Source of the DNA: Vairimorpha necatrix
Taxonomy: Eukaryota
Assembly (NCBI GenBank): GCA_036630325.1
Contig: CP142733.1
Coordinates: 186,001-250,000 of the forward strand
Length of the DNA stretch: 64,000 bases
Reading direction: 5' to 3'
Positions 5,636 to 62,985 of this stretch are shown piece after piece (the first letter of the stretch is position 1; each line of letters starts with the position of its first letter). The position numbers and the translations under genes were made by a program. The notes beneath the pieces are model-generated. The model made no database searches, had not been told where the DNA came from, and saw only the letters and a list, made by a program, of their open reading frames with translations.

Positions 5636-8367
5636 TGTTGCAGTCAAAGTGTACATTCCAGTCAATGTATACATTTACTAGTCAATGCATAAATTCGCTA
5701 AAATTCGTAGTTAAAGTATTCATTGTAACTGAAATGAACACATTACCTGTGGATGTATACATTTACGGGCTGATTCTAGTCAAAGTGTGTTGTGTGTTAA
5801 ATCCGTTGGTTAAATCGTTAAATTTGCCGGGAAACCTTAAATCTAACCTCTTTATTCGTGATGCACTGTGTGCTGTTGGCTGTTGCTCAATCTGTGCTGT
5901 TTGAGAGAGTACACACTGGACTATTTGTTGGATGGTAAGCGAGTTTTTTTATTTTTTTTGTCCATAGAAATTTATAATTTTTAATTATTTTTAGCCATAA
6001 ATATAAAATGGATAAACAAGCAATGAAAGATAAATTCTACCAGTATATTAAGAATACTCCGCAAAAAACTAACGGCTTTCGTATGAGTACGGAAAGATAT
6101 ACTCAACTAATAAGTGATGTTAAATCCGCTAAATCTGTTCAGAAAAAAGAAAACCGCCACTTCTGGTTGCTGAAACATTATGATACAGTATATGTGGGTA
6201 ATGTGGATAAACTAATTGCACCAATAGCAAATGAAAAAGTGCTGTATTATGTTACTGTTGAAGAATTGTTTGAAGTTTTATGTATAACTCATTTATCAAT
6301 TGGACATGGAGGACGAGACAGAATGAAAAAGGAGCTTAACCTTTGCTTTAAAAATATAACAGCACAAGATATTCAAACCTTTTTAAATAATTGTGAAGTG
6401 TGCCTTAAAAAGGGGCGAATGAAAGAAAGGCTTGGTGTATAATCCAATGGTGTTTTCTCATTTTAATTCAAGATGTCAAGTAGATTTAATTGACTTAAAA
6501 TCACAGCTAATTGATAATTATAAATTTATATTGGTATACCGGGACCACTTAACAAAGTTTATCAAATTAGAGCCCTTAAAAATAAGACAGCATATGAAGT
6601 TGCTGATCAACTCCTTCAAATTTTTTTTACTATTTGGGGCACATCTATTTTGCAATCGGACAATTTCCAAGAATTTGTTAACCACGTCATTGATGATTTT
6701 AAAGGTTTGTTGCCTGAATTAAAAATTGTGCATGGGAAGCCACGCCACGGCCAGTCTCAAGGCAGTGTGGAGCGTGCGAATCAAGATATAAAAAATTTTA
6801 ACCTCATGAATGCAAGATAATCAAACTAGTAATTTGAGTAGAGGACTGAGTTATGTGCAGTTTATGAAAAATCGAGCCCTTCACGCTGGTATAAAGCGAA
6901 GTCCTTACGAGGCAATGTTTGGACAGACCGCCAAGGTCGGCCTCGCCTCTTCTTGGCTACCACACGAGGTATTAAGCAGTATAAACAGTGAAGAAGATTT
7001 GGAAAATATTCTTAAAAATATCAACTGTAATGAAGAAAGTGTCCAGGAGATTCCACAAGTTGAAGTTATTGAGGAAGAGGATCTAGAATCAGATAATCTT
7101 CGGCGAAGGCGTCAAGGAATTGCTACTGGATGACACGGAACATTGTAGTATGCCGCCTGCCTCCGAGACCCGAAAATGTGATGGATGTGACATTTTACTC
7201 AATTCGGAATCCATTAAATTATGCGATATTTGTACGGCGCAATCACGCATCAATTATGCCCGAGCAGAAGCAAAAGAAAACTTGAACAAGCAAGCTAAGC
7301 GCATGAAACTAATTTCTGAAGCTTCGCATCCCTCGGCGGAGGTGGGAATGACAGTTAGAATTAATGTACCGGAAGTTGATAGAGGACGGAGAGATTCACA
7401 TGCAGTACAAGTATGTTTATTAACTAAAACTGATGATGATTACTTTCAAATTGGAACACGTAATGGGATTTTAAAAGGATTATATTCCAGATCTTTATTT
7501 AGCGTGTCTCCCATAAGTATATTAACGCTAAATGATATTGAAATCAATGCAATTGAATTGAAATTACGTACTATAGCTACCAAACAGTCAAGAGGTAGCG
7601 GACGGGGATTCTTCAAATGCCAGTGCAAAACAAAATGCGCAACAAAAAGATGTGCCTGCCTCAAAGAAAGCAAATCGTGCAACTCCAAATGTCATGGAAG
7701 TTTAAATTGTGCTAACAAATAACGTTTTATTCTAATTTTACTAAATTTTATGTTATAAATTATTCTTTCTATTATATTGTATTTTTTGCTTTATATTTAT
7801 ATCTTTTCTAATAAATATTTTAATTAGCTTTAGTGGAATCATCATCGAGTCAATTATAAATCATTTTTTTTATATTTTATATTATAACCTATTTATGTTG
7901 TTCAAACTTTTGTTCTAAATTATTATGTGTTTCAATTTAAACTAAAATTTTTATTTAATATAACCTAGTTTTACTGTTTAAACTTAATCATTGTGTGTGT
8001 TCTAATTTCAATTTCTCGATTCAACATTTATCTTTTAACCTGAATATAGAACGGCGATCATGGTTTTGTGCCTGTAAAAAACTTGTTCAAACTATTTTTT
8101 ATTCTAAAATTTATTAATTAACAAATTTACTGCAGCTGGTTAGTAACTCTGCATACATTTACTAGATAATGCATGCATTCACTAGTTAAAATGTTCATTT
8201 TAATAGTGAGTGAACACTTTGACTAGTAACAGCCCGAGAATGCATACATCCATTAGGTAATGTGTTCATTTCAGTTACAATGAATACTTTAACAACGAAT
8301 TTTAGCGAATATATGCATTGACTAGTAAATGTATACATTGCCTGGAATGTACACTTTGACTACAACA
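5636..8367 (+). mobile_element. Ginger-type (Gypsy-integrase-related, KRBA2/SCAND3-like) DNA transposon
   Basis: ~150-bp TIRs starting TGTTG and ending CAACA, with 4-bp TSD TATA. Empty sites TTGTATACAC in units 3 and 4. Confidence 0.9.
6008..7722 (+). pseudogene. Frameshifted integrase-type transposase of the Ginger element
   Basis: Consecutive ORFs give an HHCC zinc finger (HLSIGHGGRD...CEVC), SRCQVDLID, the HGQSQGSVERAN region, RSPYEAMFG and a Cys-rich C-terminus (CQCKTKCATKRCAC...CNSKCH). Several frameshifts and stops. Confidence 0.88.
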
Positions 8368-27235: not shown

Positions 27236-29071
27236 GTGATATTTGTCGTAAACTTTCTTTTTTTAAGGATTAATAAATTTTCATGATTTTAAAAAAAAAT
27301 TTAAGGCAGACTAACGGACAATATTAGCACCGAAAAAGTTTATGTTTTTAAGTTAAAATCTCTTTGTAAGTGTGTTTTCTTAAATTCCATATCGTAAATT
27401 TAGCCTTTAAATTGTTTCCTTGCTGATCAGACAATAATAGTTTAAAAATGACGGACACGGCCGTTGCATACAATAAAAATAAGATAAACTTTTATTCACT
27501 AAACCCTTTTCTTTCTAATAAAATTATCGCATTCTGATATATCCACGATCTTACTTCTTTTGGACGTTAAAACACAATAGCATCACAAAAAAATCGACAA
27601 TATTGTATCTAACAATCATGAATTTATGAATTGAATCATCTTTTTTTTTATGGTTTATGTGTTATCAATAAAGCTATTTGTTACTTGAAGTTCTTTAACC
27701 AAATAGGATTTATTTTTTTATTTATAATGAAAATTATTATATCTCAAAAACGAACTCCATTCCAATACTCTTAATTTTTTATGAATATGCTTGATACAAG
27801 ATAAGCTTTCATTGGGATGTAATTCAATTATTTATTCTGTATTTCTCTTTATATAAAATTAATACTTTTTCTTTCAAGGCCGAAAAAATATCCATGATAC
27901 ACAATAAACCAAAATTTTCGTATATGTATTTAGTACAAAAATAAAAGTTTTATAATAAATCCAAATTTTTTTACCTACTAATTTTTCTCTACTTTATGTT
28001 CATACCATATAGACATAATTGTATTACGTAAATTATTTCACGTCATAAATTTTTTTGTATTACGTTTTTTTTTTAGCATTTCCGTCTTTTTATACAAAAA
28101 TTATCTCGTGCTTTCTCTTTTTTGTTTCTTATTGTATACACAAAACAAAATTTTACAGCTAGAACTAAATCTAAACCTATTAAATTGGAACATAATATGC
28201 TTAATATTATATCTTTTATGTTAAAAATTTCTAAATATGTTTTTTGCCAAAAAAAATTTATAATTTACAGTTTATTTCTCTCATAACCCCGTAGAATATT
28301 TGATTGATTCATAAAATCGGTGTTGTGCTTAAAACACATTTTTTCTATAAAAAGTGAAATTTGAATATAATTATTTATTTTATAACTGGAAGCACAAAAG
28401 CTATGCATATAATTTAACTAATTCGGTCAAATATAACAAGAAAAAAAATTATTAATACACTTCAAACATTTGCATGTGAAATGAAATAAAAGACATTGTT
28501 TTTCAACTTTAAAATAATAATTCATTAATTTGTTTTTAATGAAATCCTAGCTAATATAACATCCTATTAAAAATTTTCAATATAAAATTATTTTTATCTG
28601 TGTTTGTCAATTTAAAGATAAAAAGTATTCATTATGGTATAAAAGAGTTTTTTATATATTTAGAATTAAATATAACTTTATTTTTAATTTAGATACTAGA
28701 GTGCAAGAAAATTTTTTTTACAAGTACTTTTATTTATATGTGTATTCTTTATTTTTAGTTCTCGTCAATAAATAACAGTGTATTTCAATCTTTCATAATA
28801 TTCTTTTATAAACCCTACTATTAACTTATTTGTTTAATTTATAGTTTAATTCAATATGGAGAAAAGATAGGCGGATTTAACACTATGAAATCTATTCAAT
28901 TTTCATAAATTACGTAGAGAAAAAAATTGAAAAATCATTTTTAACGTGGGATAATAAGAAGCTCTTGTTAGATTATAAAGTTCGATTGAGGGAAGCGAAA
29001 TTCGGGTTTTTTTACTTTCTGTGAAGAGCAGCTTATAAAACAACAGAGAATGATTTACATGATGCAAGAGA

Positions 29072-30156
29072 AGATATTGAGAAGGAGAAGACGTAAATCA
29101 ACGATAAGGTTTGAGGGGAGCCAGATCGAAGAATTATAGAGTTTGTAGTGGCGAATATAATGGGATTAAGGCAAGAAAAGGTATTGAGAATGAGAGTGCT
29201 TAAATAGACGATAAGGTTTGAGGGGGACCAGATCGAAGAAATTAAGACTTGTTAGTAGCAAGCTTATTAGAGACGACGAGAAAGAGAAGGTAATCTGAAG
29301 GAGAAGACTTTAATCGACGATAAGGTTTGAGGGGAACCAGATCGGCGAAATATGACTTGTTAGTAGCGAGTTTTATGAACATTAAGAGACAGAGAAGGTA
29401 TTGAGAAGGAGAGTGCTTAAATAGACGATAAGGTTTGAGGGGAACCAAATCGGCGAAATATGACTTGTTAGTAGCGAGTTTTATGAACATTAAGAGACAG
29501 AGAAGGTATTGAGAATGAGAAGACATAAATCGACGATAAGGCTTGAGGGGGAAACCAAATCGAAGAAATTAATACTTGTTATCAGCAAGCTTATTAGAGA
29601 CGACGAGAAAGAGAAAGTATTGGGAAGGAGAAGACATAAATCGACGATAGGGTTTGAGGGGAACCAAATCGAAGAAACATGACTAGTTAGTGGCGAGTTT
29701 TATGAACATTAAGAGAAAGAGAAGATATTTGAATGAGAAGACTTAAATCGACGATAAGGTTTGAGGGGGGGAACAAATCGAAGAAAACAAGACTTGTTAG
29801 TAGCAAGCTTATTAGAGACGACGAGAAAGAGAAGATAGTAATAATGAGAAGACTTAAATCGACGATAAGGTTCTGAGAAAAAACCAGATCAAAAGAATAT
29901 GGCTTGTTAGTGGCGAGTACAGTGAACTTAAGGTAGAGAAGATATTTGAATGAAGAGACTTAATTCGATAATATTGTTTGAGGGGGAATCATGTTGAAGA
30001 ATTATCAAATTGTATGTGGCGAGCTTATTGAACATTGAAAGAAAGAGAAGGTATTGAGAAGGAGAAGACTTAATTCGATAATAACGTTTGAGGGGGAACC
30101 ATGTCGAAGAATTATAAACTTGTTAGTAGCGAGCTTATTAGAGACGACGAATGAGA
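29072..30156. repeat. ~108-bp tandem repeat block, about 10 copies (unit 3)
   Basis: Almost identical to the unit 2 block. Confidence 0.92.
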
Positions 30157-30703
30157 GCAAATTGTTCTTGCTTAAGATCGAAGTTTCTACTTAAGAACTG
30201 AATGCTATTTAGTCTAAGAATGAAAACTCATTTGTAGTATCCTTATCGAAACCAAAACAAGAGAAATTTTCTGCACACAGAAAAAAAAGAATGAGGTTAT
30301 TTGTTCGAACTTCAAGAAAAAATTAAAGATATGGCAGCTTCTTAAAGAAACTCCTATCTGCGATGTAGTGATTTGATCTGAAGAGATAATACACATAATG
30401 TGCAGAGAAGGCCTTTTGAGAATAAGAGTCGAGAGGTAAGTAACTATTAAAGCTGACGATGCTTAGAAGAAAATCCTGTGTGACTTGGCGCGATACGACT
30501 TAAATTTTTGAATTCACTTTTGTCGTACCTCCTGCGGAAGTACAACTCCAATAAAGATAAGTTTTGAGTAAATAGTTTATTTCTCTTATCTTCCATACCC
30601 CTAAGTATGGAATTTTCTTTTATAGTTTTTTTTTGTTTGTTTACAGGGTAAACAAATCAAGAAATGTCAAAAATGATATGTTTGACATGTGGGATACCAC
30701 ATC

Positions 30704-31501
30704 CTACCCTCTTCTTTTAATGTCCTTTATGTGGATCCAAATGCCTCCTTCTTCTACTTTAACCCAGTTTCCTTTCTTCCCAACCTCTTTGATCGTACAG
30801 GGTCCTTTATATTGTTCATCCATTTTCCCAGCTTTGAAATCTCTTACAAATACTTTATCATTTATTTTTAATTTTTTATCGTTATTCTGGTTCAGTGTGG
30901 CTGGAACTGATTTGTATTTTGGTTCCTTTAGGTTGCTTTGTCGTCTGAATGGGTCAAAAAAGCTGTATTGTTTCTCTAATTCGAATGGAGAGCATCCAAT
31001 AGTTCTTTTGTAATTTACGTTAAGTTTAATGTTAATTTTATTTGTTATGTCGTTGATGTTATTTAGCTTGTTTATCCTTAGACATTCAGCTATTATACTG
31101 TTTTGCCTTTCTGCCATTCCGTTGCTTTGCGGATGGTATATTGGAGTGTTAACGAGTTTAATTCCTCTACTTTTCTCATATTTTTCTCTGAGTTTTTCTC
31201 CGGTAAATTGTGTGCCATTGTCCATGATAATTTTTTCTGGCTGTTGAAATTCTTGTATCCATTTATCTATACATTTTATTATTGTATCTTCCGTTATGTT
31301 ATATAGAAGGTATACCCTTGAAATTCTTGAGTAAACGTCTGTTATGCAAAGGTAATAAGCCTTATAATGGATTGTATCATGTTCAAAATTTTCAAGTTCA
31401 AATGGTCCAAATATGTCCATGGCTATTGTTCCGTAAATTTTATCAGATTCGATCTGTAATTTCTGAGTTTTGACTTTCTCTTTCTTATTTAAGTTACACA
31501 T
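30704..31501 (-). CDS. Integrase core, out of frame with the upstream polyprotein
   Basis: MDIFGPF, MDNGTQF, HPQSNGMAERQN and YKGPC motifs. Confidence 0.9.
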   Translation of the reverse strand: MCNLNKKEKVKTQKLQIESDKIYGTIAMDIFGPFELENFEHDTIHYKAYYLCITDVYSRISRVYLLYNITEDTIIKCIDKWIQEFQQPEKIIMDNGTQFTGEKLREKYEKSRGIKLVNTPIYHPQSNGMAERQNSIIAECLRINKLNNINDITNKINIKLNVNYKRTIGCSPFELEKQYSFFDPFRRQSNLKEPKYKSVPATLNQNNDKKLKINDKVFVRDFKAGKMDEQYKGPCTIKEVGKKGNWVKVEEGGIWIHIKDIKRRG

Positions 31502-34500
31502 TCTGCAATTTTTGTTATTGCTATTATTTTGTTCTTTAATCCAATTATGTTGTAGAAAGGAGAGAGATTCTTGTTTAATACTACGATTCCTGGGTGGCCG
31601 GCTAGTTCATGTATTTTTGTTAGAAAATTTTCTGCTTCGGTGTTTTTGATCATTATTTTGTCATCTTTATTTCTTTCCCAGTTTTCCTTTCCGGATTTAT
31701 CGTCTGATATTTTTTCTACATATTGTTCTATTATATTCGTAAGGTTATTTCCATGTCTGACATTTTCTATTTTAAAACATCTTGATAGGTAGTCAGCTAC
31801 TGAGTTATTCTCTCCTGCGATTTGTTTTATGCAGTAATTGTGCTCTATCATCATCGCGTCCCATCTTTCTATTCTTCTGCTTATTTTGCTTTTAAATAGA
31901 CAATTCCTGTTATCTGTATAGATTTCGACGTAATTTCCGAGTACTATGTTTCTGCACTTATCCATCGCGTATACTATTGCAAAGTATTCTTTTTCCACTA
32001 TTGTATAATTTCTTTCAGTTTTATTAAATTTCATGCTTATATTTAAAATTATTCCGTGTTCTTGTGATAGTACTGCGCCCATTCCTAGTTCAGAGGCGTC
32101 GCAATGTAGTGTAAATTTTTTACTGTAGTCTGGCAGTACTAGATGGCTATTGTTCTTTAGTGTACTTACTAATTTGTTTATTATTAGATTGTCTTCTTTT
32201 GTTAGCTTGACTTTTTTTTCGTTTCCTTTTAGCTTTTCAGTTAAGCTTAGAATTTCTAGACTTAAGTTTGGAATGTATTTTCTGTACCAATTAAATATGC
32301 CAATTATTTTTTGCAGGTCTTTTTTAGTGTGGCATTTCATGTTTTCTGTTAGTTTACAGTCTTTCGTGAGAGGGTACATTTTTCCGTTAAAAATTCTTGT
32401 TCCTAGGATTTCGGTGTCCTTTGTGCAAAACTCTGATTTTGCGAAATTTACATTTACATTGTAATGTTTCAATCTTGTGAACAGTTCTTTAAGCGTATTG
32501 AGGTGTGATTCGTAGTCCTTTGTGGCAATTATTATGTCGTCTATATATACTGAAATGTTATTTATCCCGAAAAGTATTTTGTTCATGATTTTCTGAAAAG
32601 CTTTTGGTCCATTTTTTAATCCAAAAGGAAGTCTTTTGTACCTGAATGTTTTACCAAATATCGAAAATGCTGTCCATTTTCTGCTATCTTTTGCTAGGAG
32701 TAATTGATTAAACCCGTTTGTCAAGTCTAATTTGCTTATTACTTCGCTTTTACCAAGTTGATAAATAATATCGTCCATTTTGGGTATTATTTCCACTTCA
32801 TCTTCAACAAAGTTATTTATTTCTCTATAGTCTACTATTAATCTCATTTTCCCATTTTTCTTTTTCTTAAAAAATGCGGGACTTGTGTATCTTTCATTAC
32901 ATTCTTCTATTATGTCAGCGGTTATAGGTCGTTGTATTTCGGCTATTGCATCTTCTTTAAAGTTTGATGGTACGGCATAGTTAATTTTCTTACATTTTAT
33001 GTCGTTGTTTGAAACTTGTAATTTAACGTGATCTGTGTTTATAGGACAATTTTCTTTGATTTCTCTTTTATAATTATCTATAATTTCCCTAAGTCTTTCT
33101 TCTTCCTTAGTGATAAGTATTTTTCCTGGGGGTTTTTCGAATTCTGTTTCTTCTGCATTTGTTTTCATATTTACGGTTGCGTTGTTCCAGATTATTTTCT
33201 TTCTTGTAAAATCTAATATAATATCGTTTCTCGATATGAAATCTCTACCAAGTATAATATTGACTGGTAGGTTTTTTAATAAGTAAAATTCAATCTTGCA
33301 TGTCTCGTTTTGATCCTTTAATTTTAAGTCGAGTTCTATTGTAGTGTTAGTTTTTTCACTAGATTTATTACCGAACATTACCTGGATCTCTTTGTTTTCT
33401 CTAGTGGTGATGTTCCATTGTTCTACGAGGTCTGCTTTTATAAAGTTTAATCCTGCTCCGCAGTCTATAGTTCCTGTTGACTCATGTTTTGTGTTGATTA
33501 TGAGTGGGATATCGAGTTGTTCGACAATGTTAGGATTTTCTAAAATAACATAGTTTAAAGAGTTTTTATTTTCCCTGGGCTCTGAAGTCTTTCTCGTTGT
33601 ATTTTTTAAATTTTGATTGGTATCGGGAACTACTGTCTTTTTGTAGTTGTTGAATTTTTCGTGTTTTACTTTGCTCATATTCGATCGATTTGTTTCATTG
33701 CTTTGCCCGCAGTCTCTCGTTGTATGTCCCAAAGTTTTGTGGACTTTACACCATTTTTTCATGAATCTTATACCTGAGGTGTTATTTAGCTTTCTCGGTA
33801 TGTTAAATCTTGTTATTATGTTTTCTTCAATTCTTTTTAGGGCTGGTATGATTTCGGGTAGTGTTTCGAAGTTTTGTTCCTCGAGATATCTTACTGTTTC
33901 TAAGCCTAGTCCTCTGTATAGAGATTCCTTTGATCTTCGTTCGTATTCTTTCATGCTACAGTTGGATACTTTACTGTAAATAGTTAATCGATTCATGATT
34001 TCGTTTACATAGTCGTCGAAGAAGATGTGGTCAGTCTGTTTGAGATTACTCAGTTCTGCTATTAAGTTCTCGACCCTTTTCTGTGAAAATACTTTGGACA
34101 TGATGTATTTTTTGTTCTCTTCATAATCATCTTTCAATTTGGTTTTATCTATAATCTGATCTTCTATAAGATCGTATAAAAAGAGCCTTTTAGTTTCTTC
34201 ATTCCATTGGTTCCTTTGGAAAATTTCTTCGATCTTTTTGAACCATCCTAGTAGATCGATTTCGAATATGTCGTTGATCAGTTCTACATTCTTAGTGATT
34301 CCTAGATCCACTTCACCTGTCTTAATTCTTATGGTGACTACTTTTGTTTCTTGAATTTTGGAGTTGTGCCCTGCGATTTCTCTTCCTCGCGTGGGTGGGA
34401 GTTCATTATATTTGTACTCTCTTATTGAATTCAATATGTCGTACCTCCTGCGGAAGTACAACTCCAATAAAGATAAGTTTTGAGTAAATAGTTTATTTCT

Positions 34501-34512
34501 CTTATCTTCCAT
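31489..34512 (-). CDS. Gag-protease-RT-RNase H polyprotein (ends inside the integrase zinc finger)
   Basis: WCKVHKTLGHTTRDC knuckle, IDCGA protease, LPFGL and YIDD RT motifs, CDAS...VADYLSR RNase H, HELAGH. Confidence 0.93.
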   Translation of the reverse strand: MEDKRNKLFTQNLSLLELYFRRRYDILNSIREYKYNELPPTRGREIAGHNSKIQETKVVTIRIKTGEVDLGITKNVELINDIFEIDLLGWFKKIEEIFQRNQWNEETKRLFLYDLIEDQIIDKTKLKDDYEENKKYIMSKVFSQKRVENLIAELSNLKQTDHIFFDDYVNEIMNRLTIYSKVSNCSMKEYERRSKESLYRGLGLETVRYLEEQNFETLPEIIPALKRIEENIITRFNIPRKLNNTSGIRFMKKWCKVHKTLGHTTRDCGQSNETNRSNMSKVKHEKFNNYKKTVVPDTNQNLKNTTRKTSEPRENKNSLNYVILENPNIVEQLDIPLIINTKHESTGTIDCGAGLNFIKADLVEQWNITTRENKEIQVMFGNKSSEKTNTTIELDLKLKDQNETCKIEFYLLKNLPVNIILGRDFISRNDIILDFTRKKIIWNNATVNMKTNAEETEFEKPPGKILITKEEERLREIIDNYKREIKENCPINTDHVKLQVSNNDIKCKKINYAVPSNFKEDAIAEIQRPITADIIEECNERYTSPAFFKKKKNGKMRLIVDYREINNFVEDEVEIIPKMDDIIYQLGKSEVISKLDLTNGFNQLLLAKDSRKWTAFSIFGKTFRYKRLPFGLKNGPKAFQKIMNKILFGINNISVYIDDIIIATKDYESHLNTLKELFTRLKHYNVNVNFAKSEFCTKDTEILGTRIFNGKMYPLTKDCKLTENMKCHTKKDLQKIIGIFNWYRKYIPNLSLEILSLTEKLKGNEKKVKLTKEDNLIINKLVSTLKNNSHLVLPDYSKKFTLHCDASELGMGAVLSQEHGIILNISMKFNKTERNYTIVEKEYFAIVYAMDKCRNIVLGNYVEIYTDNRNCLFKSKISRRIERWDAMMIEHNYCIKQIAGENNSVADYLSRCFKIENVRHGNNLTNIIEQYVEKISDDKSGKENWERNKDDKIMIKNTEAENFLTKIHELAGHPGIVVLNKNLSPFYNIIGLKNKIIAITKIAECVT

Positions 34513-35259
34513 ACCCCTAAGTATGGAATTTTCTTTTATAGTTTTTTTTTGTTTGTTTACAGGGTAAACAAATCAAGAAATGTCAAAAATGATATGTTTG
34601 ACATGTGGGATACCACAACTTTAAAGTAAAATTTTTGTGAAGAGTTAACGATCTATATAATTGTCTTGAGACTCTAAACGAGCATTGATACCTAAAAATA
34701 TAAATTGACTAGAAATCCTGGGAAAATATTTAGATTATACCTTAAAAAATGTCTTTTTAACTAGTCAGTTATTGAATAAACACTGCTGTTATTTTGTTTG
34801 TTCGGCGGATCGTGTAAACATATAATATGTTTTTTCATCTTGCTTTGTATTAAAAATATTTCATCTGATAAGGTAAACATAAATAATAAAGTTCTTGTAA
34901 AATAAATCTGACGATCACAAACTTCACTTTTAATTGAATAGTAGTACGAAAGGAACATCATATTGTTGATTTGTATATTTTTTATGGTGTGTTTTGTAAT
35001 AAATTTTTTTATATCTAACCATAAAAAAATAATAACCCAGACCCAACCCATATTTATGCATTATTTTTTTTTCTATTTATAGTTTTAAAATTCATGGAAC
35101 GTTCTAAAACCAACAAAATTCTTTTTGACGTAAAAAATAAACATAAACAATTTTTGCTAATAAATGTTAATACATATTTTGATCGTATATAAAGTAAAAT
35201 TTCTGTACACATTTTACAAGACAACAACACAAATAAACAATGCATTGTTTACAGAAAGA

Positions 35260-50588: not shown

Positions 50589-51190
50589 AGAAAAATAGTA
50601 TAATTTTAACTTAAGATATTTTTTTTATTAACCCTATCATTGTTTTTTTATTAGGAGTCAAAAAGCAGAGATTTTTTTTTTGTAAGTGTTATATTAACAT
50701 GTTTTCTAACGCAACTAAGCCTTTTTATGTTGTTTGTTGTTTACTTCAAATAAAACTATATTTGTGATCGAAGTACTTTTCACTTATAGTAAATAATTAT
50801 ATTAGAAATGAGAAATAACGAACCAAAATAGTAAAAGTCATTATTGAAAATCAACAAATACACAATAAATTTCATTGAATATGTAAACATTTTGGAAAAC
50901 AAACGCATTACGTCGACCATCTAATGTTTTGGTACGTTGAAGAACAAAACAACAATTAGTCTAATTTTTAGAGAATTCTCTATATACTTATTGTCGTTAT
51001 AAAATAGTTTATTAGTTTTTTTTTATCTCTTCCTTACATCTTGCTTAGGGGAAAATATAAAAGTTAAAATATTGAGAAATGTAAAACTTATTAAACATGT
51101 AGCAGCCCATGGGCTCCTACGACTTCTCCTTCCCAAAAGAAAAGTCTTGCTTAATATGAGCCTTATTAACTCTGATTTAACTTTTGTTAT

Positions 51191-51885
51191 TGTTGATATT
51201 TTTATATTTTTATTACCCCAATTTTTAAGATGAGTAAGGAAGTGGAGGAGAAGAATCTCATAAATAAAATGGTGGAGAATATGGGGATCGAACCCATGGC
51301 CTCTTACTTGCCAAGCAAATAAAATAGAATTACATTATACCACACCTTTCCATCACCAGTCAAATGGGCGTGTAGAAAGGTTTAATCGTACTTTACAAGA
51401 TTTAATTTATAAAAATAAAAAGGAAAAATTACTTACTGAAAAGGTTAACAGAGGAATAGAGATATACAATAATAGCTATCATTCGGCTACGAGGATGACG
51501 CCAAATGAAGCTTTCTCGTTAGAAAATACGGATGAATTAAAAAATGCACAAATTAAGAATATTGTTGCATATAATACAGCCCAAATGAGGAAACCAAAAG
51601 AAATTAAATTAAATATGGGCGATATAGTAATTATCAAAGAAGAAGGAATAATAAAGAAGGGACAACCTAGATTTAAATTAAGGGGTAAAATTCATGAATG
51701 TTTAGAGGGTAATACGTACATGATAGACACCGGTAAAAGAAAGTTTAAAAGGCATATATCTCAACTCAAACTTGTCATTGATGACCCCATCCTTTAAGCG
51801 GAGGGATGTTGATATTTTTATATTTTTATTACCCCAATTTTTAAGATGAGTAAGGAAGTGGAGGAGAAGAATCTCATAAATAAAA
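51191..51885 (+). mobile_element. TRIM-like internally deleted LTR element (695 bp)
   Basis: Identical 79-bp LTRs (51191-51269 and 51807-51885), TSD GTTAT, PPT AAGCGGAGGGA. Interior is a tRNA-complementary tract plus an integrase C-terminus (TPFHHQSNGRVERFNRTL). Confidence 0.92.
51270..51318 (-). other. 3' two-thirds of a tRNA-Ala (positions ~28-76, including CCA) forming an extended PBS
   Basis: Minus strand reads TTGC-TTGGCAA-GTAAG-AGGCC-ATGGG-TTCGATC-CCCAT-ATTCTCC-ACCA: anticodon arm, T arm, U70, A73 and CCA. Confidence 0.9.
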
Positions 51886-52390
51886 GTTATTTTAAATTAT
51901 AGACCCATCCGGCAGTATTCTGTCGTTATTTCATAATCTGGAAACCAATCAGCTTTCATACTATTTTTTTTGCTTTCTCTGCATATAAGAACTTTATCAC
52001 AATTACGAAATTTTACGGGGCCGTTATCGTACCCTTTTCTATGCTTTTTCATATTTGGCAAAATTTTCATTTCTCTTCTTGGTCAGAGACATTTTTAGAA
52101 TTAATAGGCTTTCTATCAACTTTCTTGTCAATCTCAAATTCGGGTGATCTTGCGTAATTAAAAATGAATGGGAAGTTTTTATGGCTCTATTAATAAAACA
52201 TTCACGACGTGTGTTGCATTTTCTAATGCACTTCTCCATGAGGACTCTCCGTAATTGGTAAGTTTTTTTAAATTTATACAAAGTGTTTGGTTCACTCACT
52301 CAACACATCCCACTGTATTATATTGTTCTGGCGAGGAGTATTTCCATTCAAACCCATATTTTGCTTTTAGATCCGTTATTCGTTTGTTTC

Positions 52391-52571
52391 TGTGGTATCC
52401 CACATGTCAAACATATCATTTTTGACATTTCTTGATTTGTTTACCCCGTAAACAAACAATAAAAAATTATAAAAGAAAATTCCATACTTCGGGGTATGGA
52501 AGGTATAAGAAGTAAACATTATAGGTTTAACTTATCTTTATTGGAGTTGTACTTCCGCAGGAGGTACGACA
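52391..52571 (+). mobile_element. Solo LTR of the 30521-34617 Gypsy family
   Basis: 181 bp, reverse-complement homologue of 30521-30701, TSD GTTTC. Confidence 0.93.
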
Positions 52572-52708: not shown

Positions 52709-55431
52709 CAGAGGTGGGCAAATACTTTAAGGCTGTGGGCCAAAATGAATTTTTTAAAATGTCTCCCGGGCCGGAGTACTATTTCGGCTTTGCTTTACAC
52801 AAGCAAAAATTTTGGATGAAGTTTTTTTCCCTGCCCATTTTTTACAAAAATATTAAGTATCATTTCAATTAGAATAAAATATGTCAAGTACATTTTAAGG
52901 AAATATTATTATAAATAAATGGCTATTAGATAAACCACACAATAAAAGGTTTTATTTTGTTACTTAATTATGTCTTAACGATATTAATTATTTTATTTTA
53001 CACAAGTTATTACAATTTAACATTTATATTGCATCTCTAAATATAATAGTAAAAAAATTCAAAAAAGAAAAAAAAACATCAAACGTTAAAATAAATATTT
53101 AATGTTAATGCGAAACGTGAAATGTCGAATATTCATCCGACATTATTTCTTTAAAATTAGGTTCTAAATCACTTGTGGCAATCCTTAATACCGAGCGTAG
53201 ATTTTCGTCAGTAATTTGTAATCGATAGTTATTTTTCGTGTAAACCATTAAAGAAAAGGTTCTTTCACAAATATAAGTCGAACCAAATAAAACAAGATAT
53301 TTCTGAGCATAGTTCAAAAAATGTTTGAAATGTTCATTATTTAACGCGCCATAGAAAGCACTCAATTCGTTTGAGTGAAAATTTTCTTTTAGTAAATTAT
53401 TTGATTGTAAGTCAATTAGTTCTAGTTGAATTTCAACAGGAGCTTCTTGCACGTGAAATTGAAAGGATGGCTAATTAATGATAAAGGGTTTTCAATATCT
53501 TTGAAATCTTGAAATTTTCTTTGGAATTCAGCATGCAGGTCTTGTGTTATTGCACTATATTTAAAAAAATCTGTATTTTTTAATGATTCTCGCCTTGCTT
53601 GCAATAAGGGGAAATGATTTATTAATTTATTATTACAGTTTTCAGCAAATAAATTGAGTTTTGTCATATATGCTTTGACGTTTGAGTGCATATTGAAGGC
53701 GAATTGGTTTTTACCTTGTATATTTATATTTAGTTCATTCAAATATTTTACTATATCTACTAAAAACGAGAAATCGTTTAGCCAAGCCTCATTTTGCAAT
53801 ATAGGAAAATCTTGTAGTTTTTCTTTTATCGACAAGAATGATACTATTTCATCAAGCAAATATTGGAATCTATGTAAAACTTTACCAATGCTAAGCCATC
53901 TCACTTCAGTGTAATAGGGAATTTCGTAGTAGTCACTTTCAATTTCTTATAAAAATTCAAGAAACTGTCGATGATTTAAGGCACGTCCTCGGATAAAATT
54001 TACAACTTTGGTCACAACAGTAACGACGTGATTCAATTTCAAACTTTTCTGCATAGCATTTCTTGGTGAATAATGCAGTGCAAAAATAATATATAGTGTT
54101 CTGGTTGTAACTTTTTTACTTTGTCGCGTATTCGTTTAAGTAAGCCTATATTTTTCCCTGTTAAACTAGGACAGCCATCCGTAGTGACGCTTACTATTTT
54201 ATTCCAAGTTAAACTAACTTTAACTAAACACTCTTCAACAGCGAGAAAAAAGTCTTTACCAGTAGTTGTATTTTTCATTGGATGCACACTAAGAAGTTCC
54301 TCGCTAATTTCACATTTCCTATTAATGCCGCGAATAAATATTTATAATTGACTTGTATCAGTAATATCGCAGGGCTCATCTAAAGCCAGAGAACAATAGG
54401 TAAAATCAGCAATTTTTCTGCTTAGCTGGTCAAGTAAGTTTCCTGAAATATTTTCAATCCGACGTACTATCCTTCTTCAAGAAAGGCTTAGATTTTCAAA
54501 AATATGTTTCTTTTCAGGACAACATATCTCCGACACTTGTACCATGCATTGTTTAACAAATTCTGCTTCTTAAAACGGTTTAAGAACTTAGCAATTTTGT
54601 GTGCGACAGCATAACTTGCTTTTGTAGTAGATTTTACAATATTAATTCGTTTGGAAAAAAAAATTTGTTGCTGATTCAAGTTTTTTGTTAAGTTTTCAGT
54701 TATGTTTTGAAGTTCTTGTAAAGAAAGTGATGCATATTTTGGATGTTTTGTTGTAAAATGCCTGCTTAAATTGTATTCTTTGAAAACAGCAATTGTTTCC
54801 TGACAAACTAAACAAATTGCTTTCTTATTAATGTTTGTAAAAAGATATTTTACCGTCCAAGCTTCATTGAAGTTTCTGCATTCCAAATCAACTTTTCTTT
54901 TTTTAGTTTCTCTCATTTTAAAAGGGCTACAAAAAAAATAAATAAGTAAAAACAATAAAAAAAACGCCAAAGTTTTAAAAATTTACTTACAAAAAGTCCA
55001 CTTTTTCAATTTTATATATGCAAACCAATGGTAGATTCGAACTAAAAAAGAGTATGCGATCAGAATAAAATAATAATTAACAATACCTGGGCTGCGATCT
55101 GTCGTCCCCCAAATATTGAGAGGCTGAGAGGAGTGCAGCATATGTCGTCCACACATGCATTTTAAACCTAGCGCGATCTACTTTGTGTTCGATGAAACCC
55201 CCGCCATGAGAGCGATTGTCGAGAGTGACCCGCATCGTTCACACTAGTGTAATAAGCCAAACGCTTATTTTATTTCCCCTATTATATATACAGTCCGCAT
55301 ACTAATAATGTTTATGTCAACAAAATCTCATAAAGAGTTTTAAAAAAATTGCGTTAGAATTTTTCAGCGGGCCGGATAAAATTAGCAAAAGGGCCGGATC
55401 CGGCCCGCGGGCCGGCTTTTGCCCACCTCTG
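52709..55431 (-). mobile_element. hAT DNA transposon (SPIN/Charlie/GTF2IRD2-like)
   Basis: 14-bp TIR CAGAGGTGGGCAAA and perfect 8-bp TSD ATTTACTG. Inserted in the AIDYYSKW integrase motif of the old Gypsy. Confidence 0.95.
53105..54916 (-). pseudogene. Frameshifted hAT transposase
   Basis: KKRKVD...AICLVC...YNLSRHF (BED-like), VTTDGCPS, HCIIHQE, RWLS and FGSTYICERTFS motifs spread over four ORFs. Confidence 0.92.
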
Positions 55432-59440: not shown

Positions 59441-62400
59441 TGTCGAATGTTCCTTTATTTACGAATTGCATGGGGGTGAAAATATATAATATTTATAGAA
59501 GGATACGACACCTCTCCCCCCTAAATTGAAGTATCTGCTTTAACTCGTGTTTTGTTAAGCCTGTATACTTTTCCATTCTTTTTTACCACATAGGCATCGG
59601 GTAAAATTATTTCTGTGATCACGTATCCATCTTCCCAATTGCACTTGAACTTCCCGCTTTTGGTCTCACGATATATTAAAACTTTATCGCCCACGTTTAG
59701 CTTTTTCGCCACCTCTACTTTCCCTTTCACGATTGCTTTTTTGTACTTTTCGAAGTTTTCATCGCGCTTACTCTTCGTTTCCTCCGCTGAGAATGTCACT
59801 TCTTCCTTGTCTAGCGCTTTGTCTACAGACAGCATCGGCAATTTATTCTCCCTTAACATGAACGGCGATGTTCCTATGCTCCGATTATAAGACAGGTTGA
59901 GGCATCTCGTGGCTTCTGGGAGCTTGTTCTTCCAGCTTACCCTTCCGAAATCTGTAATTTTATTTAGTATCTTCATTAACGTCTGATTCGCTCTTTCTAC
60001 TGCGCCTACAGTTTCGTGATGTTCTGGTGAACTGTATTGCCAGTCAATACCGTTCTTTTCGGCCAGGTCTTTGATGTCAGAATTTATAAATTCTAGCCCG
60101 TTGTCAGTCAAGATTCTTTCTGGAATGCCGTGTTTCTCGATAATCAATTGCTGGATTAATCCCATTATTTTCGACCCTGTTTTATAGTTAATAACAGCCG
60201 TCTCGACCCATTTAGAGTAGTGGTCAATAGCAATGAATATGAAGCTGTTTTGACTCGAAGTGTCGCATATGCGTCCTATGAGATCTATAACCCATATTTG
60301 GTTCGGCCTCTCTGATCGTATAACTTTGTTTTTTGTGTTTCGTAATGGGTATCCCGATTTCAAGCACGTTTTACACTTTTCTACGTGTTCCTTGATGTCC
60401 TTATGCATTCCTGCCCATTTGTACCTTTGTGAAATCATGAAGCTCATCGTACTAGCGCTAGCATGTCCAACGTCTAGATGGTAGGATTCTAAGATCTTCT
60501 GTCTGTCTTCATCGCTTGGTCCTGTAGCTTCGATGATATTTATATCTTTCTCTGTCGGGTTTTGTCTGCTTAACCCGTCTGCTCCATTAACCTCTCCTTT
60601 TATGTAGGTTGATTGAAATGCATACTCCTGCAACTTCATTGCCCACCTCAGCAATCTACTGGTAGGGTTCTTAGCTTCCCATAGATAAGTCAGCGCTTTG
60701 TGGTCCGTCTTCAATATGAACTCTCTACCCAGGAGGTAGTGTCTATAGTTCTCGATGCCTTTTACAACGGCCAAGAGTTCTTTGTCTGTTGTAGAGTAGT
60801 TCTTATGGGCTTTCTCTAAACTTTTGCTGAATGCACTTACGAAGTGCTCCTTCCCATCATCTCCAATCTGTGAGAGGATCGCGCCTATTCCCTGCTCTGA
60901 CGCATCCGTAGTCAGTATAAACGGTTTCCTGAGATTAATCTTGTATCTTATTGTCTCTTCTGTGAGAAGTCTCTTTAGATCTTCGAATGCCCGTTTCTCC
61001 TTTTTGCTGAGAGAAATACTCTTAACACTTCGCTTTGACTCTCCTTTAAACAGTTCGTAGAGAGGGGCTGCTATCGCTGATAAGTTACGGATGAACTCCC
61101 TACAGTAATTTATGAGCCCAAGAAACGACCGTAGTTGAGCAATATTAGTCGGCTCCTTATACTCGTTTATGGCTTTGACCTTCTCTGGGTCCGGTTTGGT
61201 CGTCTTGTTTGTTACTATATTCCCTAGAATTTTAATTTCTTCTTTGAAGAAGTGGCACTTCTTCCTGTTAAGTGCGATTCCTGCTGCCTTAAGCTTACCC
61301 AATACGATTTCCAAGTGTTCATGGTGTTCCTGGTGATTTTTAGAATAGATAATAATGTCATCCAAGTATGGTATGACGAATTTTCTGTTTTCTTTCACAA
61401 AAATCTTATCCATAGTTCTCTGAAAAGTAGCAGGGGCATTACATAGCCCAAACGGCATCCTGTTAAATTCATAATGTCCTCCTCTCCAGCTGAATGCTGT
61501 CTTCTCCTTGTCTACTTCTTCAAGGGCTATCTGATAATATCCCGACGTAGCATCTAATGTCGAAAAGATAGTAGCGTCAGCTAGATCGTCGAGAATTTCA
61601 TCAATTCGTGGGAGGGGGTATTTATCTTTGACTGTTATCTTGTTGAGCTCTCTGTAATCTATACAGAGCCTGATCGACCCATCAGGTTTCGTTACCGGAA
61701 CAACTCTACTGTTCCAGGGGCTCCTACTATTTCTTATTACGCCCAACTGCAAGTTCTTCTTGATCTGTTGTGTGATTTCCTCTTCAAAGTGCAGAGGGAT
61801 CTTTCCATTTTTCTGGTAAATTGCCTTCGCTACTGTTGTCTCGATTTGATGTTTCCCCATGTTACAAAGTGTAAGCTCTGAAATTTCAGTTTTGAACATT
61901 TCATGGTATTTCTCTTCGATTGAGATGTAATTGACTTTGTTAATCAGTGAGCCTTTCTTGACTGTATTGGCGAATTTTCTGATCAGTTGTTCCAGTAATA
62001 TGGGGTTCGTTCGTATAGCGTCAACACCTAAGATTATGTAGTCCGGTGTCCGTTCTGTGACGTAAGGGCTGAAAGTAATTGAAGTGTTTTCCGTCCTAAA
62101 ATTGATATTTAGACATCTTCCTGTAATCTCCAATGGTGTCCCTGATGCTGCTCGTATGATCGTTGAAGATCTGGTAAATCTGATATTTGTCCCTTCGAGG
62201 ACTCTTGCGGGTATCAGGGAGACATCAGCTCCGGTATCAATTAATGCTCGATGTCGTTTACAATTGAATTCTACGTTTATGTAGCAAGGGTTAGTGAAAC
62301 AGCTGTTGATCTTGTAGTTTTCTATGGTGTAGGGTATATTTCCCTTCTTCGATGGTGCGACCTTCAAAGTCCTGTTATCTAGTGTCTCGTCCGTATTAGT

Positions 62401-62985
62401 CGTGTTACTTTTCATAGGGAATGCTATCCAAGAAACTTCCTCTGTGCGCCTCAGGAATTCACTCCAATCTTGGCATTGTCTAGCAAAATCATAAAGAATT
62501 GATTTGAGGACTGAAGGAGACTTCTTGATTACTATGAGGCTGACTGCTTTGTACTCCATTGTTTGTTGCTCTATAAGTGAGTTTCCTTTCCTGCAGAAGT
62601 CTATGAAAGCCTCTAGGATGCCAAATTGTTGCGGTTTAACAAACTCGTCTAGAGTGGCCAGAGTTTTCTGTGAACTGTAAAATCTCAATTTTAGACTCTT
62701 AGTAACCTCTGCCAGATCAAGTTCTGACACCCGTTCAAATCCCATTGCTATCCATGAGAGAGCTGGCCCCCGTAGACCCAGGCAGATAAGTCTGGCGGTC
62801 TGATCTTCTGTCAGTCCCATAACCCTCGCCGTGAACGTTGTGTCACGCAACCATGTATTTATATCCTCTTCCTTCTTTCCACTGAAGCAGCCAACAGTTT
62901 TTATCGCTGTCGCCATGTCGAATGTTCCTTTATTTACGAATTGCATGGGGGTGAAAATATATAATATTTATAGAAGGATACGACA
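59441..62985 (-). mobile_element. Intact minimal Ty3/Gypsy LTR retrotransposon, 3545 bp, 70-bp LTRs
   Basis: Identical LTRs 59441-59510 and 62916-62985 (TGTCG...CGACA), TSD ATCTT. PBS TGGCGACAGCG follows the 5' LTR directly and PPT AGGGGGGAGAGG precedes the 3' LTR. Confidence 0.97.
59521..62946 (-). CDS. Single Gag-Pol polyprotein (Gag, protease, RT, RNase H, integrase), 1141 aa
   Basis: IDTGAD protease, MPFGLCNAPATFQ and YLDD RT, TDAS...ADGLSR RNase H, HLDVGH...CKTC and D,D(35)E (IDL, TDNG, VERAN) integrase. Uninterrupted. Confidence 0.96.
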   Translation of the reverse strand: MQFVNKGTFDMATAIKTVGCFSGKKEEDINTWLRDTTFTARVMGLTEDQTARLICLGLRGPALSWIAMGFERVSELDLAEVTKSLKLRFYSSQKTLATLDEFVKPQQFGILEAFIDFCRKGNSLIEQQTMEYKAVSLIVIKKSPSVLKSILYDFARQCQDWSEFLRRTEEVSWIAFPMKSNTTNTDETLDNRTLKVAPSKKGNIPYTIENYKINSCFTNPCYINVEFNCKRHRALIDTGADVSLIPARVLEGTNIRFTRSSTIIRAASGTPLEITGRCLNINFRTENTSITFSPYVTERTPDYIILGVDAIRTNPILLEQLIRKFANTVKKGSLINKVNYISIEEKYHEMFKTEISELTLCNMGKHQIETTVAKAIYQKNGKIPLHFEEEITQQIKKNLQLGVIRNSRSPWNSRVVPVTKPDGSIRLCIDYRELNKITVKDKYPLPRIDEILDDLADATIFSTLDATSGYYQIALEEVDKEKTAFSWRGGHYEFNRMPFGLCNAPATFQRTMDKIFVKENRKFVIPYLDDIIIYSKNHQEHHEHLEIVLGKLKAAGIALNRKKCHFFKEEIKILGNIVTNKTTKPDPEKVKAINEYKEPTNIAQLRSFLGLINYCREFIRNLSAIAAPLYELFKGESKRSVKSISLSKKEKRAFEDLKRLLTEETIRYKINLRKPFILTTDASEQGIGAILSQIGDDGKEHFVSAFSKSLEKAHKNYSTTDKELLAVVKGIENYRHYLLGREFILKTDHKALTYLWEAKNPTSRLLRWAMKLQEYAFQSTYIKGEVNGADGLSRQNPTEKDINIIEATGPSDEDRQKILESYHLDVGHASASTMSFMISQRYKWAGMHKDIKEHVEKCKTCLKSGYPLRNTKNKVIRSERPNQIWVIDLIGRICDTSSQNSFIFIAIDHYSKWVETAVINYKTGSKIMGLIQQLIIEKHGIPERILTDNGLEFINSDIKDLAEKNGIDWQYSSPEHHETVGAVERANQTLMKILNKITDFGRVSWKNKLPEATRCLNLSYNRSIGTSPFMLRENKLPMLSVDKALDKEEVTFSAEETKSKRDENFEKYKKAIVKGKVEVAKKLNVGDKVLIYRETKSGKFKCNWEDGYVITEIILPDAYVVKKNGKVYRLNKTRVKADTSI

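Follow-up and report, generated by a model that had tools for sequence, protein, structure and literature searches.

A mini LTR element with primer-tRNA sequence at its deletion junction: a probable reverse-transcription accident in a microsporidian-type retrotransposon

We analyzed a 64-kb stretch of DNA (here called the window) and found on its + strand a complete LTR element of 695 bp (51191-51885), in which the 5' LTR runs directly into sequence complementary to the 3' part of a tRNA and from there into the last part of an integrase gene. The reading that we prefer, with a probability of about 0.75, is that this non-autonomous mini element arose by deletion from a very compact LTR retrotransposon, of a Ty3/gypsy type known from Nosema/Vairimorpha microsporidia, and that it was made when plus-strand strong-stop synthesis read through into the primer tRNA, past A58, and was then transferred to a downstream site. 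A reverse-transcription accident of this type would be of a kind already known from HIV-1, and what would be new is the example from a microsporidian-type retrotransposon.

Anatomy and relatives of the mini element

The structure of the mini element can be read directly from its letters (Table 1). It has the parts expected of an LTR retrotransposon, namely direct LTRs, a target duplication (TSD), a PBS at the 5' LTR and a polypurine tract (PPT) at the 3' LTR, and the two LTRs are separated by 616 nt. The window's two other elements likewise carry TSDs of 5 bp. One contig of public run X1 (record 1) is 79 nt long and corresponds exactly to 51191-51269, from which it follows that the sequence graph branches at both LTR ends. 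Within the 64-kb window, the LTR, the tract and the integrase are each single-copy, and no parent was found there. The two other gypsy elements of the window were considered as parents and rejected as members of different families, with 27-36% identity over short integrase stretches.

Table 1. Features of the mini element, with positions in the window
Feature	Position	Strand	Basis
Left TSD, GTTAT	51186..51190	.	Read from sequence; repeated after 3' LTR
5' LTR, 79 nt	51191..51269	+	100% identical to 51807-51885
PBS common to the full-length parent, 14 nt, complementary to tRNA 76-63	51270..51283	+	X2 record 9
Putative extra primer-tRNA copy, 24 nt, complementary to 62-39 (remaining T arm, variable loop and anticodon-stem 3' strand)	51284..51307	+	tRNA complementarity; absent from parent on both sides
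Overlap zone, parental integrase codons (F)-C-Q-A-N; 51308-51319 also formally complementary to tRNA 38-27	51308..51320	+	X2 record 12
Integrase C-terminus remnant, 162 codons and stop (51795-51797)	51309..51797	+	ORF 51264-51797; rve_3; relatives
Polypurine tract, AAGCGGAGGGA	51796..51806	+	Directly 5' of 3' LTR
3' LTR, 79 nt	51807..51885	+	100% identical to 5' LTR
Right TSD, GTTAT	51886..51890	.	Read from sequence

The initial annotation of this DNA had described the tRNA-like tract as joining the middle of an integrase with no gag or RT in between, and this was borne out. The tract passes directly into the frame with the integrase-core match (rve_3, E=4e-6), relatives align with this frame C-terminally, and gag, protease and RT are all missing between the tract and the integrase. 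The same frame stays open back to 51264, through the tract, as an ORF of 177 codons (51264-51797). The absence of RT makes the element non-autonomous.

Of a gypsy-type pol, the mini element keeps the integrase C-terminus alone. Its relatives are RT-RNaseH-integrase polyproteins, and the remnant aligns with the last ~160 residues of such gag-pol proteins (~1100 aa). The best of the longer relatives are P0001, a metagenome protein of 1111 aa (51% identity), and a Vairimorpha necatrix protein (50%), and the best near-length relatives are found on a Logan contig (56%) and in a Nosema granulosis protein (55%). The parent itself was not present in the protein database, where the longer relatives reached at best 51% (6 proteins among 246 candidates) and the near-length ones at most 56% (5 among 30 candidates). 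A metagenome scan with the pol alignment yielded 66 loci, with a best identity of 38% apart from short segments, and the contig of P0001 was not among them. In view of its relatives, which include Nosema and Vairimorpha proteins, we regard the mini element as one of microsporidian type. P0001 ends in ..KKEGC, which is equivalent to the A-E-G-C with which the mini element reads through into its LTR.

At the other end of P0001, the gag start (residues 10-18) resembles the tRNA-encoded MVENMGIEP of the mini element, and the P0001 element may have a longer tRNA complementarity than the direct parent of the mini element described below. Two further X1 contigs (records 7 and 8, matching window 51318-51386) represent two other integrase families, with 12 and 7 differences over ~60 nt, and their depth is much higher. 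In one of them the match is preceded by letters that translate to SSKVKNWAIE, ten residues that also occur in the Vairimorpha necatrix protein P0003.

The tRNA-complementary tract and the full-length parent

At 51270, the first base after the 5' LTR, the + strand begins to show complementarity to the 3' part of a tRNA. The tract opens with the CCA (51270-51272) and A73, continues through the acceptor strand 72-66 (U70 included), a perfect T arm (65-49) and the variable loop, and closes at 51307 with the 3' strand of the anticodon stem (43-39). The secure complementarity amounts to 38 nt (51270-51307), made up of the 14 nt of an ordinary parental PBS and 24 nt extra. The Rfam tRNA model matches the minus strand at this place with 23.3 bits (E=0.014 in a search of 401 nt), its 3' half alone fitting and the gathering score of 29 not being reached. 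At gathering score Rfam returned no match in the window, and ARAGORN found no tRNA gene in it. The first 26 nt of the tract (51270-51295) are unique in the window, with a chance expectation of 0.

The 22-mer for positions 72-51 occurs exactly in seven bacterial genome contigs, and in each of the seven there is a tRNA-Ala gene (four with CGC, three with GGC) whose positions 49-73 equal the tract and whose variable loop and anticodon arm differ from it. Given that all 7 of these bacterial genes agree with the tract over the 22-nt 3' stretch, the primer was likely an alanine-type tRNA, as judged by resemblance only. U70 and A73 are present, the 5' strand (with G3) is absent and the anticodon bases coincide with parental integrase, so that the identity of the primer rests on the 3' 38 nt. 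In two contigs of X1 the match begins at 51273 (A73), with a run of A before it on the + strand. Read on the tRNA strand, the discriminator is followed by a run of T, so that these contigs look like genomic tRNA genes in which no CCA is encoded. An exact 29-mer of the tract had no match in genome contigs and none in viral contigs, no more than 17 letters of the tract matched in any of the 66 metagenome pol loci, and ARAGORN found no tRNA-Ala on the 60 of these 66 loci to which it was applied.

The full-length parent is known from short contigs of public runs, other than the window's own genome, with its 5' end and its integrase on separate contigs whose translations were read by hand. Public contigs (Logan) were compared with the region at 80% likeness, which gave 17, 11, 1 and 0 records for runs X1 to X4, respectively. 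Two public runs carry about half of the region's sampled words, and no RNA run is listed among the sequencing runs carrying these words. The comparison takes in 17 of 31 contig pieces and 14 of 21 loose ends. The insertion flanks 51150-51171 were without cover in four of four runs and X2 had no contig over 51284-51307; such blanks were not counted as evidence.

Two contigs of X2 contain the parental counterparts of the two junctions. Record 9 (577 nt) matches 51191-51283 over 93 letters with 0 differences and continues with 484 unlike letters, which begin as an open gag start, reading MVENM and then KTKPVETTIK and resembling the ..MVENIKIEP.. of P0001. The parent thus shares the LTR, but its tRNA complementarity ends after 14 nt and gag follows. 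The possibility, raised at the outset, of a parent carrying the tract as ordinary gag sequence was looked for and did not hold, as the parental order is the same LTR, a 14-nt PBS and then gag. The parental gag frame starts with the ATG at 51269-51271, which spans the boundary between LTR and PBS; in the mini element the same ATG opens MVENMGIEPMASYLPSK and then a stop. On the other side, record 12 (368 nt) has 203 unlike letters and then matches 51308-51472 (165 nt) with 0 differences. The last 30 letters before the match read ENLSSKVKMF and the match goes on with CQANKIELHY, collinear with KENLSKKVKKY-AEENKIVLHY in relatives, which means that the parental integrase already contains 51308-51320.

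The junction between tract and integrase is present on two contigs of X1, in two sequence variants. Record 4 (74 nt, 51273-51346, 0 differences) bridges it with 35 and 39 letters on either side, and record 5 covers 51282-51346 with two differences, one of which, 51316 C>A, exchanges Ala for Glu, the residue of the relatives at that place. The presence of two variants in a public run indicates that the product may have been inherited or multiplied. X1 contig depths (LTR 759, LTR-to-tract 214, junction 399 and 231, integrase 486) were considered as copy numbers and rejected, since the depth of a contig does not measure copy number.

The identity of 51308 onward with the parental integrase, a direct observation, bears on most of what had been claimed for the tract. 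The codons of the overlap zone are TGC-CAA-GCA-AAT, with an apparent anticodon GGC at 51310-51312 and 'G34' at 51312, and the strand transfer fell within 51308-51320 or at the left edge of this zone. Of the ~49 nt of tRNA complementarity in the initial annotation, 38 nt (51270-51307) stand, and the last 12-13 nt (51308-51320) are parental integrase, lying within the 165 nt that X2 record 12 shares with 0 differences. The element therefore says nothing on I34, A37 or m2,2G26. The GGC that had been taken as a read-out of inosine (I34) is made of parental integrase codons (X2 record 12), the A37 supposedly read as A belongs to the same parental stretch, and the end of the supposed tRNA copy, earlier ascribed to a stop at m2,2G26, falls in parental integrase bases and so is not readable from the element. 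Nor does the CCA add anything as a mark of a mature tRNA, since the TGG is already part of the parental PBS. The idea that the mini element would be a record of tRNA editing is not supported by its sequence. As the apparent anticodon is integrase, junctions of this kind could serve as records of tRNA modification only after both the parent and the tRNA gene have been aligned. The core of the earlier proposal, plus-strand synthesis past A58 followed by a switch into integrase, gains support from the PBS being continued in register beyond position 58.

Proposed origin of the junction and its alternatives

During reverse transcription of the full-length parent, plus-strand strong-stop DNA would have passed the end of the 14-nt PBS and, on the primer tRNA that the minus strand still carried, also position 58, copying this alanine-type tRNA at least to position 39. 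The extended 3' end would no longer have been able to pair with the normal PBS copy, and would have paired instead with a short similar stretch ~2.8 kb downstream, in the integrase gene of the minus-strand DNA, and been extended there. Integration and replication of the mismatched cDNA would then have produced the order LTR - PBS - tRNA copy of 24 or more nt - last ~160 integrase codons - PPT - LTR. We infer the order of these events from the anatomy of the element, as we do a cDNA intermediate and a heteroduplex that replication would have resolved. The available text of one report states that, when the m1A58 stop fails, RT keeps copying the tRNA and the extra letters are unable to pair with the minus strand (PMC8599865). 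The identical LTRs, the TSD, the PPT and a tRNA complementarity in register with the PBS favor this origin, as do the agreement with bacterial tRNA-Ala genes, the two parental contigs of X2, the junction contigs of X1 and the X1 contigs resembling genomic tRNA genes; against it, a random landing site would make the likeness to an anticodon arm a coincidence of 0.2-2%, a point that bears on how far the copy ran.

For the true extent of the tRNA copy, two end points can be considered. The copy may have run to about position 27-28, with a landing site chosen by its likeness to the anticodon arm, and we slightly favor such a copy into the arm because random 12-mers rarely fit: among the 127,976 12-mers of the window, 1.8% complete a 5-bp stem with GTAAG, and 0.21% complete the stem and also place a pyrimidine at 32, U at 33 and a purine at 37. 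Alternatively, the copy may have halted beside position 37/38, the site of m1I37 in eukaryotic tRNA-Ala. In zebrafish, according to the part of the source available, Ala-TGC/CGC carry m1I37, and m1A58 is high in one Ala isodecoder and low in another (PMC11417395). Under both alternatives, what the element carries today at positions 38-27 is integrase sequence.

A fuller scenario, which we consider unlikely, has the copy running through the anticodon loop to ~27-28 of a mature, I34-bearing tRNA-Ala(AGC), the inosine being read as G and so giving the 11-12-nt match to integrase that guided the landing; the mini element would since have multiplied with a PBS of at least 38 nt, re-copying the tRNA tract in each cycle. 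If true, the tract would record heritably how the host's mature tRNA (A58, 46-48, 39) is read by a retroelement RT.

Somewhat more doubtful still is the original proposal that all ~49 nt (76 to ~27) were copied from a mature I34-bearing tRNA-Ala(AGC), with GGC standing for inosine, A37 read as A and a stop at m2,2G26. In its favor, the 12 nt supply the missing side of a 5-bp stem, in which two pairs are G-U, and a 7-nt loop that has U33 and a purine at 37, a combination offered by just 0.21% of the 127,976 12-mers, and a perfect match of 11-12 nt would explain the landing site. However, 51308-51320 are parental integrase and encode the expected protein, so these bases need no tRNA origin and cannot discriminate between A, I and G at 34. 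Given X2 record 12, the proposal now requires the complement of tRNA 38-27 to equal a parental integrase 12-mer by chance, and for a perfect 12-mer match in a parent of ~3.3 kb our own estimate of the a priori chance is ~2 in 10,000. The junction variant with 51316 C>A moreover breaks the supposed stem pair 30-40 and gives the Glu of the relatives, and two G-U pairs are unusual for an anticodon stem.

We also have little confidence in an origin by two steps, in which read-through first gave a full-length element with an in-frame insert of 24 nt (8 codons) and a later, unrelated deletion removed the part from gag to mid-integrase. The length of the insert is a multiple of 3 and the gag frame is kept open over those codons, and LTR elements often suffer internal deletions. 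The left edge of the deletion would nevertheless have to coincide exactly with the end of the tRNA copy. In addition, the X1 contig over the tract runs unbranched into integrase (record 4), and no contig from the tract to gag occurs among the 17 of 31 pieces compared, contigs being prone to drop rare variants. By sequence alone, a one-step and a two-step origin would look the same.

An event at the DNA level, in which ectopic recombination or repair would have joined a genomic tRNA-Ala gene to the PBS of an integrated element and end joining would have produced the deletion, appears very improbable. X1 does have genomic tRNA genes with at least 30 nt in common with the tract (the loose ends before 51273), but because a genomic tRNA gene lacks the CCA the homology would be only 11 nt (positions 73-63), two independent breakpoints would be needed, and the identical LTRs and clean TSD fit a fresh cDNA insertion. 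Hardest of all to credit is that the long complementarity is a normal, selected trait of the family, an extended PBS inside the gag start, for although the gag ATG straddles the LTR/PBS border, so that the PBS is coding, and P0001 (51% identical) starts ..MVENIKIEP.. like the mini element's MVENMGIEP, including the IEP encoded by the T loop, the direct parent with its identical LTR leaves the tRNA complementarity after 14 nt (X2 record 9) and its next 18 letters match the tRNA complement at only 6 by hand count.

Extended contacts with the primer are known from yeast Ty1 and Ty3, which have, besides the PBS, separate conserved functional boxes complementary to the T and D arms of the primer. 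The mini element resembles them in being complementary to the primer tRNA beyond its 3' terminal nucleotides. The Ty1/Ty3 boxes belong to autonomous elements, whereas the extra complementarity of the mini element is contiguous and absent from the parent.

Known systems and neighboring elements

The closest counterpart of the proposed accident is in HIV-1. Hardy et al. 2025 describe defective HIV-1 proviruses from deferred (aberrant) second/plus-strand transfer that carry tRNA(Lys3) inserts; in the available text of the report, these are one case of their own and 43 defective proviruses from GenBank, in which the deletion junction is set by an insert of 7-54 nt (PMC12657518). As far as that text describes them, both they and the mini element have an intact LTR and PBS, a PBS continued in register (by 7-54 nt there versus 24 to ~36 nt here), an insert that forms the left edge of a large internal deletion with the downstream sequence in the same orientation, and an implied read-through of position 58 (PMC12657518). 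In the mini element the continuation runs through 51284-51307, to position 39. The insert is absent from the parent, since X2 record 9 diverges after 51283 and X2 record 12 joins from 51308, and it coincides with the deletion junction, integrase following directly with strand and frame as in relatives. Unlike the HIV-1 class as covered in the same text, the mini element derives from a gypsy-type retrotransposon whose LTRs measure 79 nt, whose PBS has 14 nt and whose primer tRNA is of alanine type, and it is fixed in a genome assembly, whereas the HIV-1 copies are found in somatic reservoir cells (PMC12657518).

In the literature searched, judged from titles and the starts of abstracts, we found no report of a primer-tRNA insert at the deletion junction of an LTR retrotransposon. 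With its identical LTRs and intact TSD, the mini element would provide a clean and dated case of a reverse-transcription accident that had been known from defective HIV-1 proviruses, and this case lies in a retrotransposon copy within a genome of germline type. It would also provide a concrete route by which a miniature non-autonomous LTR element could be born in a single replication cycle. For this element and its tRNA, neither the 14-nt PBS nor position 58 would be a reliable stop.

By size and parts, 695 bp with LTRs, PBS and PPT, the mini element compares with TRIM and other non-autonomous LTR retrotransposons, which, in the available part of a report, share with it a length below 1 kb, two short LTRs, a PBS, a PPT, a 5-bp TSD and the lack of an RT of their own (PMC10886601). 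It differs from TRIM as described in that part by keeping a 162-codon integrase remnant in open frame and by its visible origin from a given parent by one deletion (PMC10886601). The open frame that remains has 177 codons, the window holds one copy, and the junction occurs on two X1 contigs, whose depth is not a copy number. Helenus elements, in the same available part, are likewise miniature LTR elements with tRNA-related sequence, but their tRNA-like sequence lies in the LTRs, whereas the tract of the mini element is antisense, internal, continues the PBS and covers the 3' part only (PMC10886601). No sense tRNA-like sequence was found in the LTRs of the mini element: there was no Rfam match at gathering score, and the sole tRNA match is antisense and internal.

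Two other gypsy elements in the window, both on the minus strand, share the very short LTRs. The more compact one, an intact element of 3,545 bp (59441-62985), has identical LTRs of 70 nt (TGTCG...CGACA), the TSD AAGAT and a single gag-pol ORF of 1,141 codons. Its ATG straddles the LTR/PBS border, so that its PBS (TGGCGACAGCG...) is coding sequence, as is the parental PBS of the mini element. The second, of 4,097 bp (30521-34617), has identical LTRs of 181 nt, the TSD AAAGT and a pol split into two overlapping frames (31489-34572 and 30704-31606). No TGG-type PBS follows its 5' LTR, the downstream sequence starting with TATTGAATTC.

Ordinary host genes are nearly absent among the window's ORFs of at least 110 aa. 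At 54488-54916 (minus strand) and 6008-6442 (+ strand) lie an ORF for a zinc finger of Spin-doc type (PF18658, E=6e-13) and a separate fragment with a match to an integrase H2C2 zinc-binding domain, and together with the scarcity of host genes these give the window a transposon-rich look. A tandem array with a period of ~108-110 nt (29064-30139; 7-8 copies, 60-88% alike) adjoins the 3' LTR of the 4.1-kb element. The 181-nt LTR family is also present as a solo LTR (52391-52571, + strand, 91% identical), with GTTTC on both sides, 500 bp downstream of the mini element.
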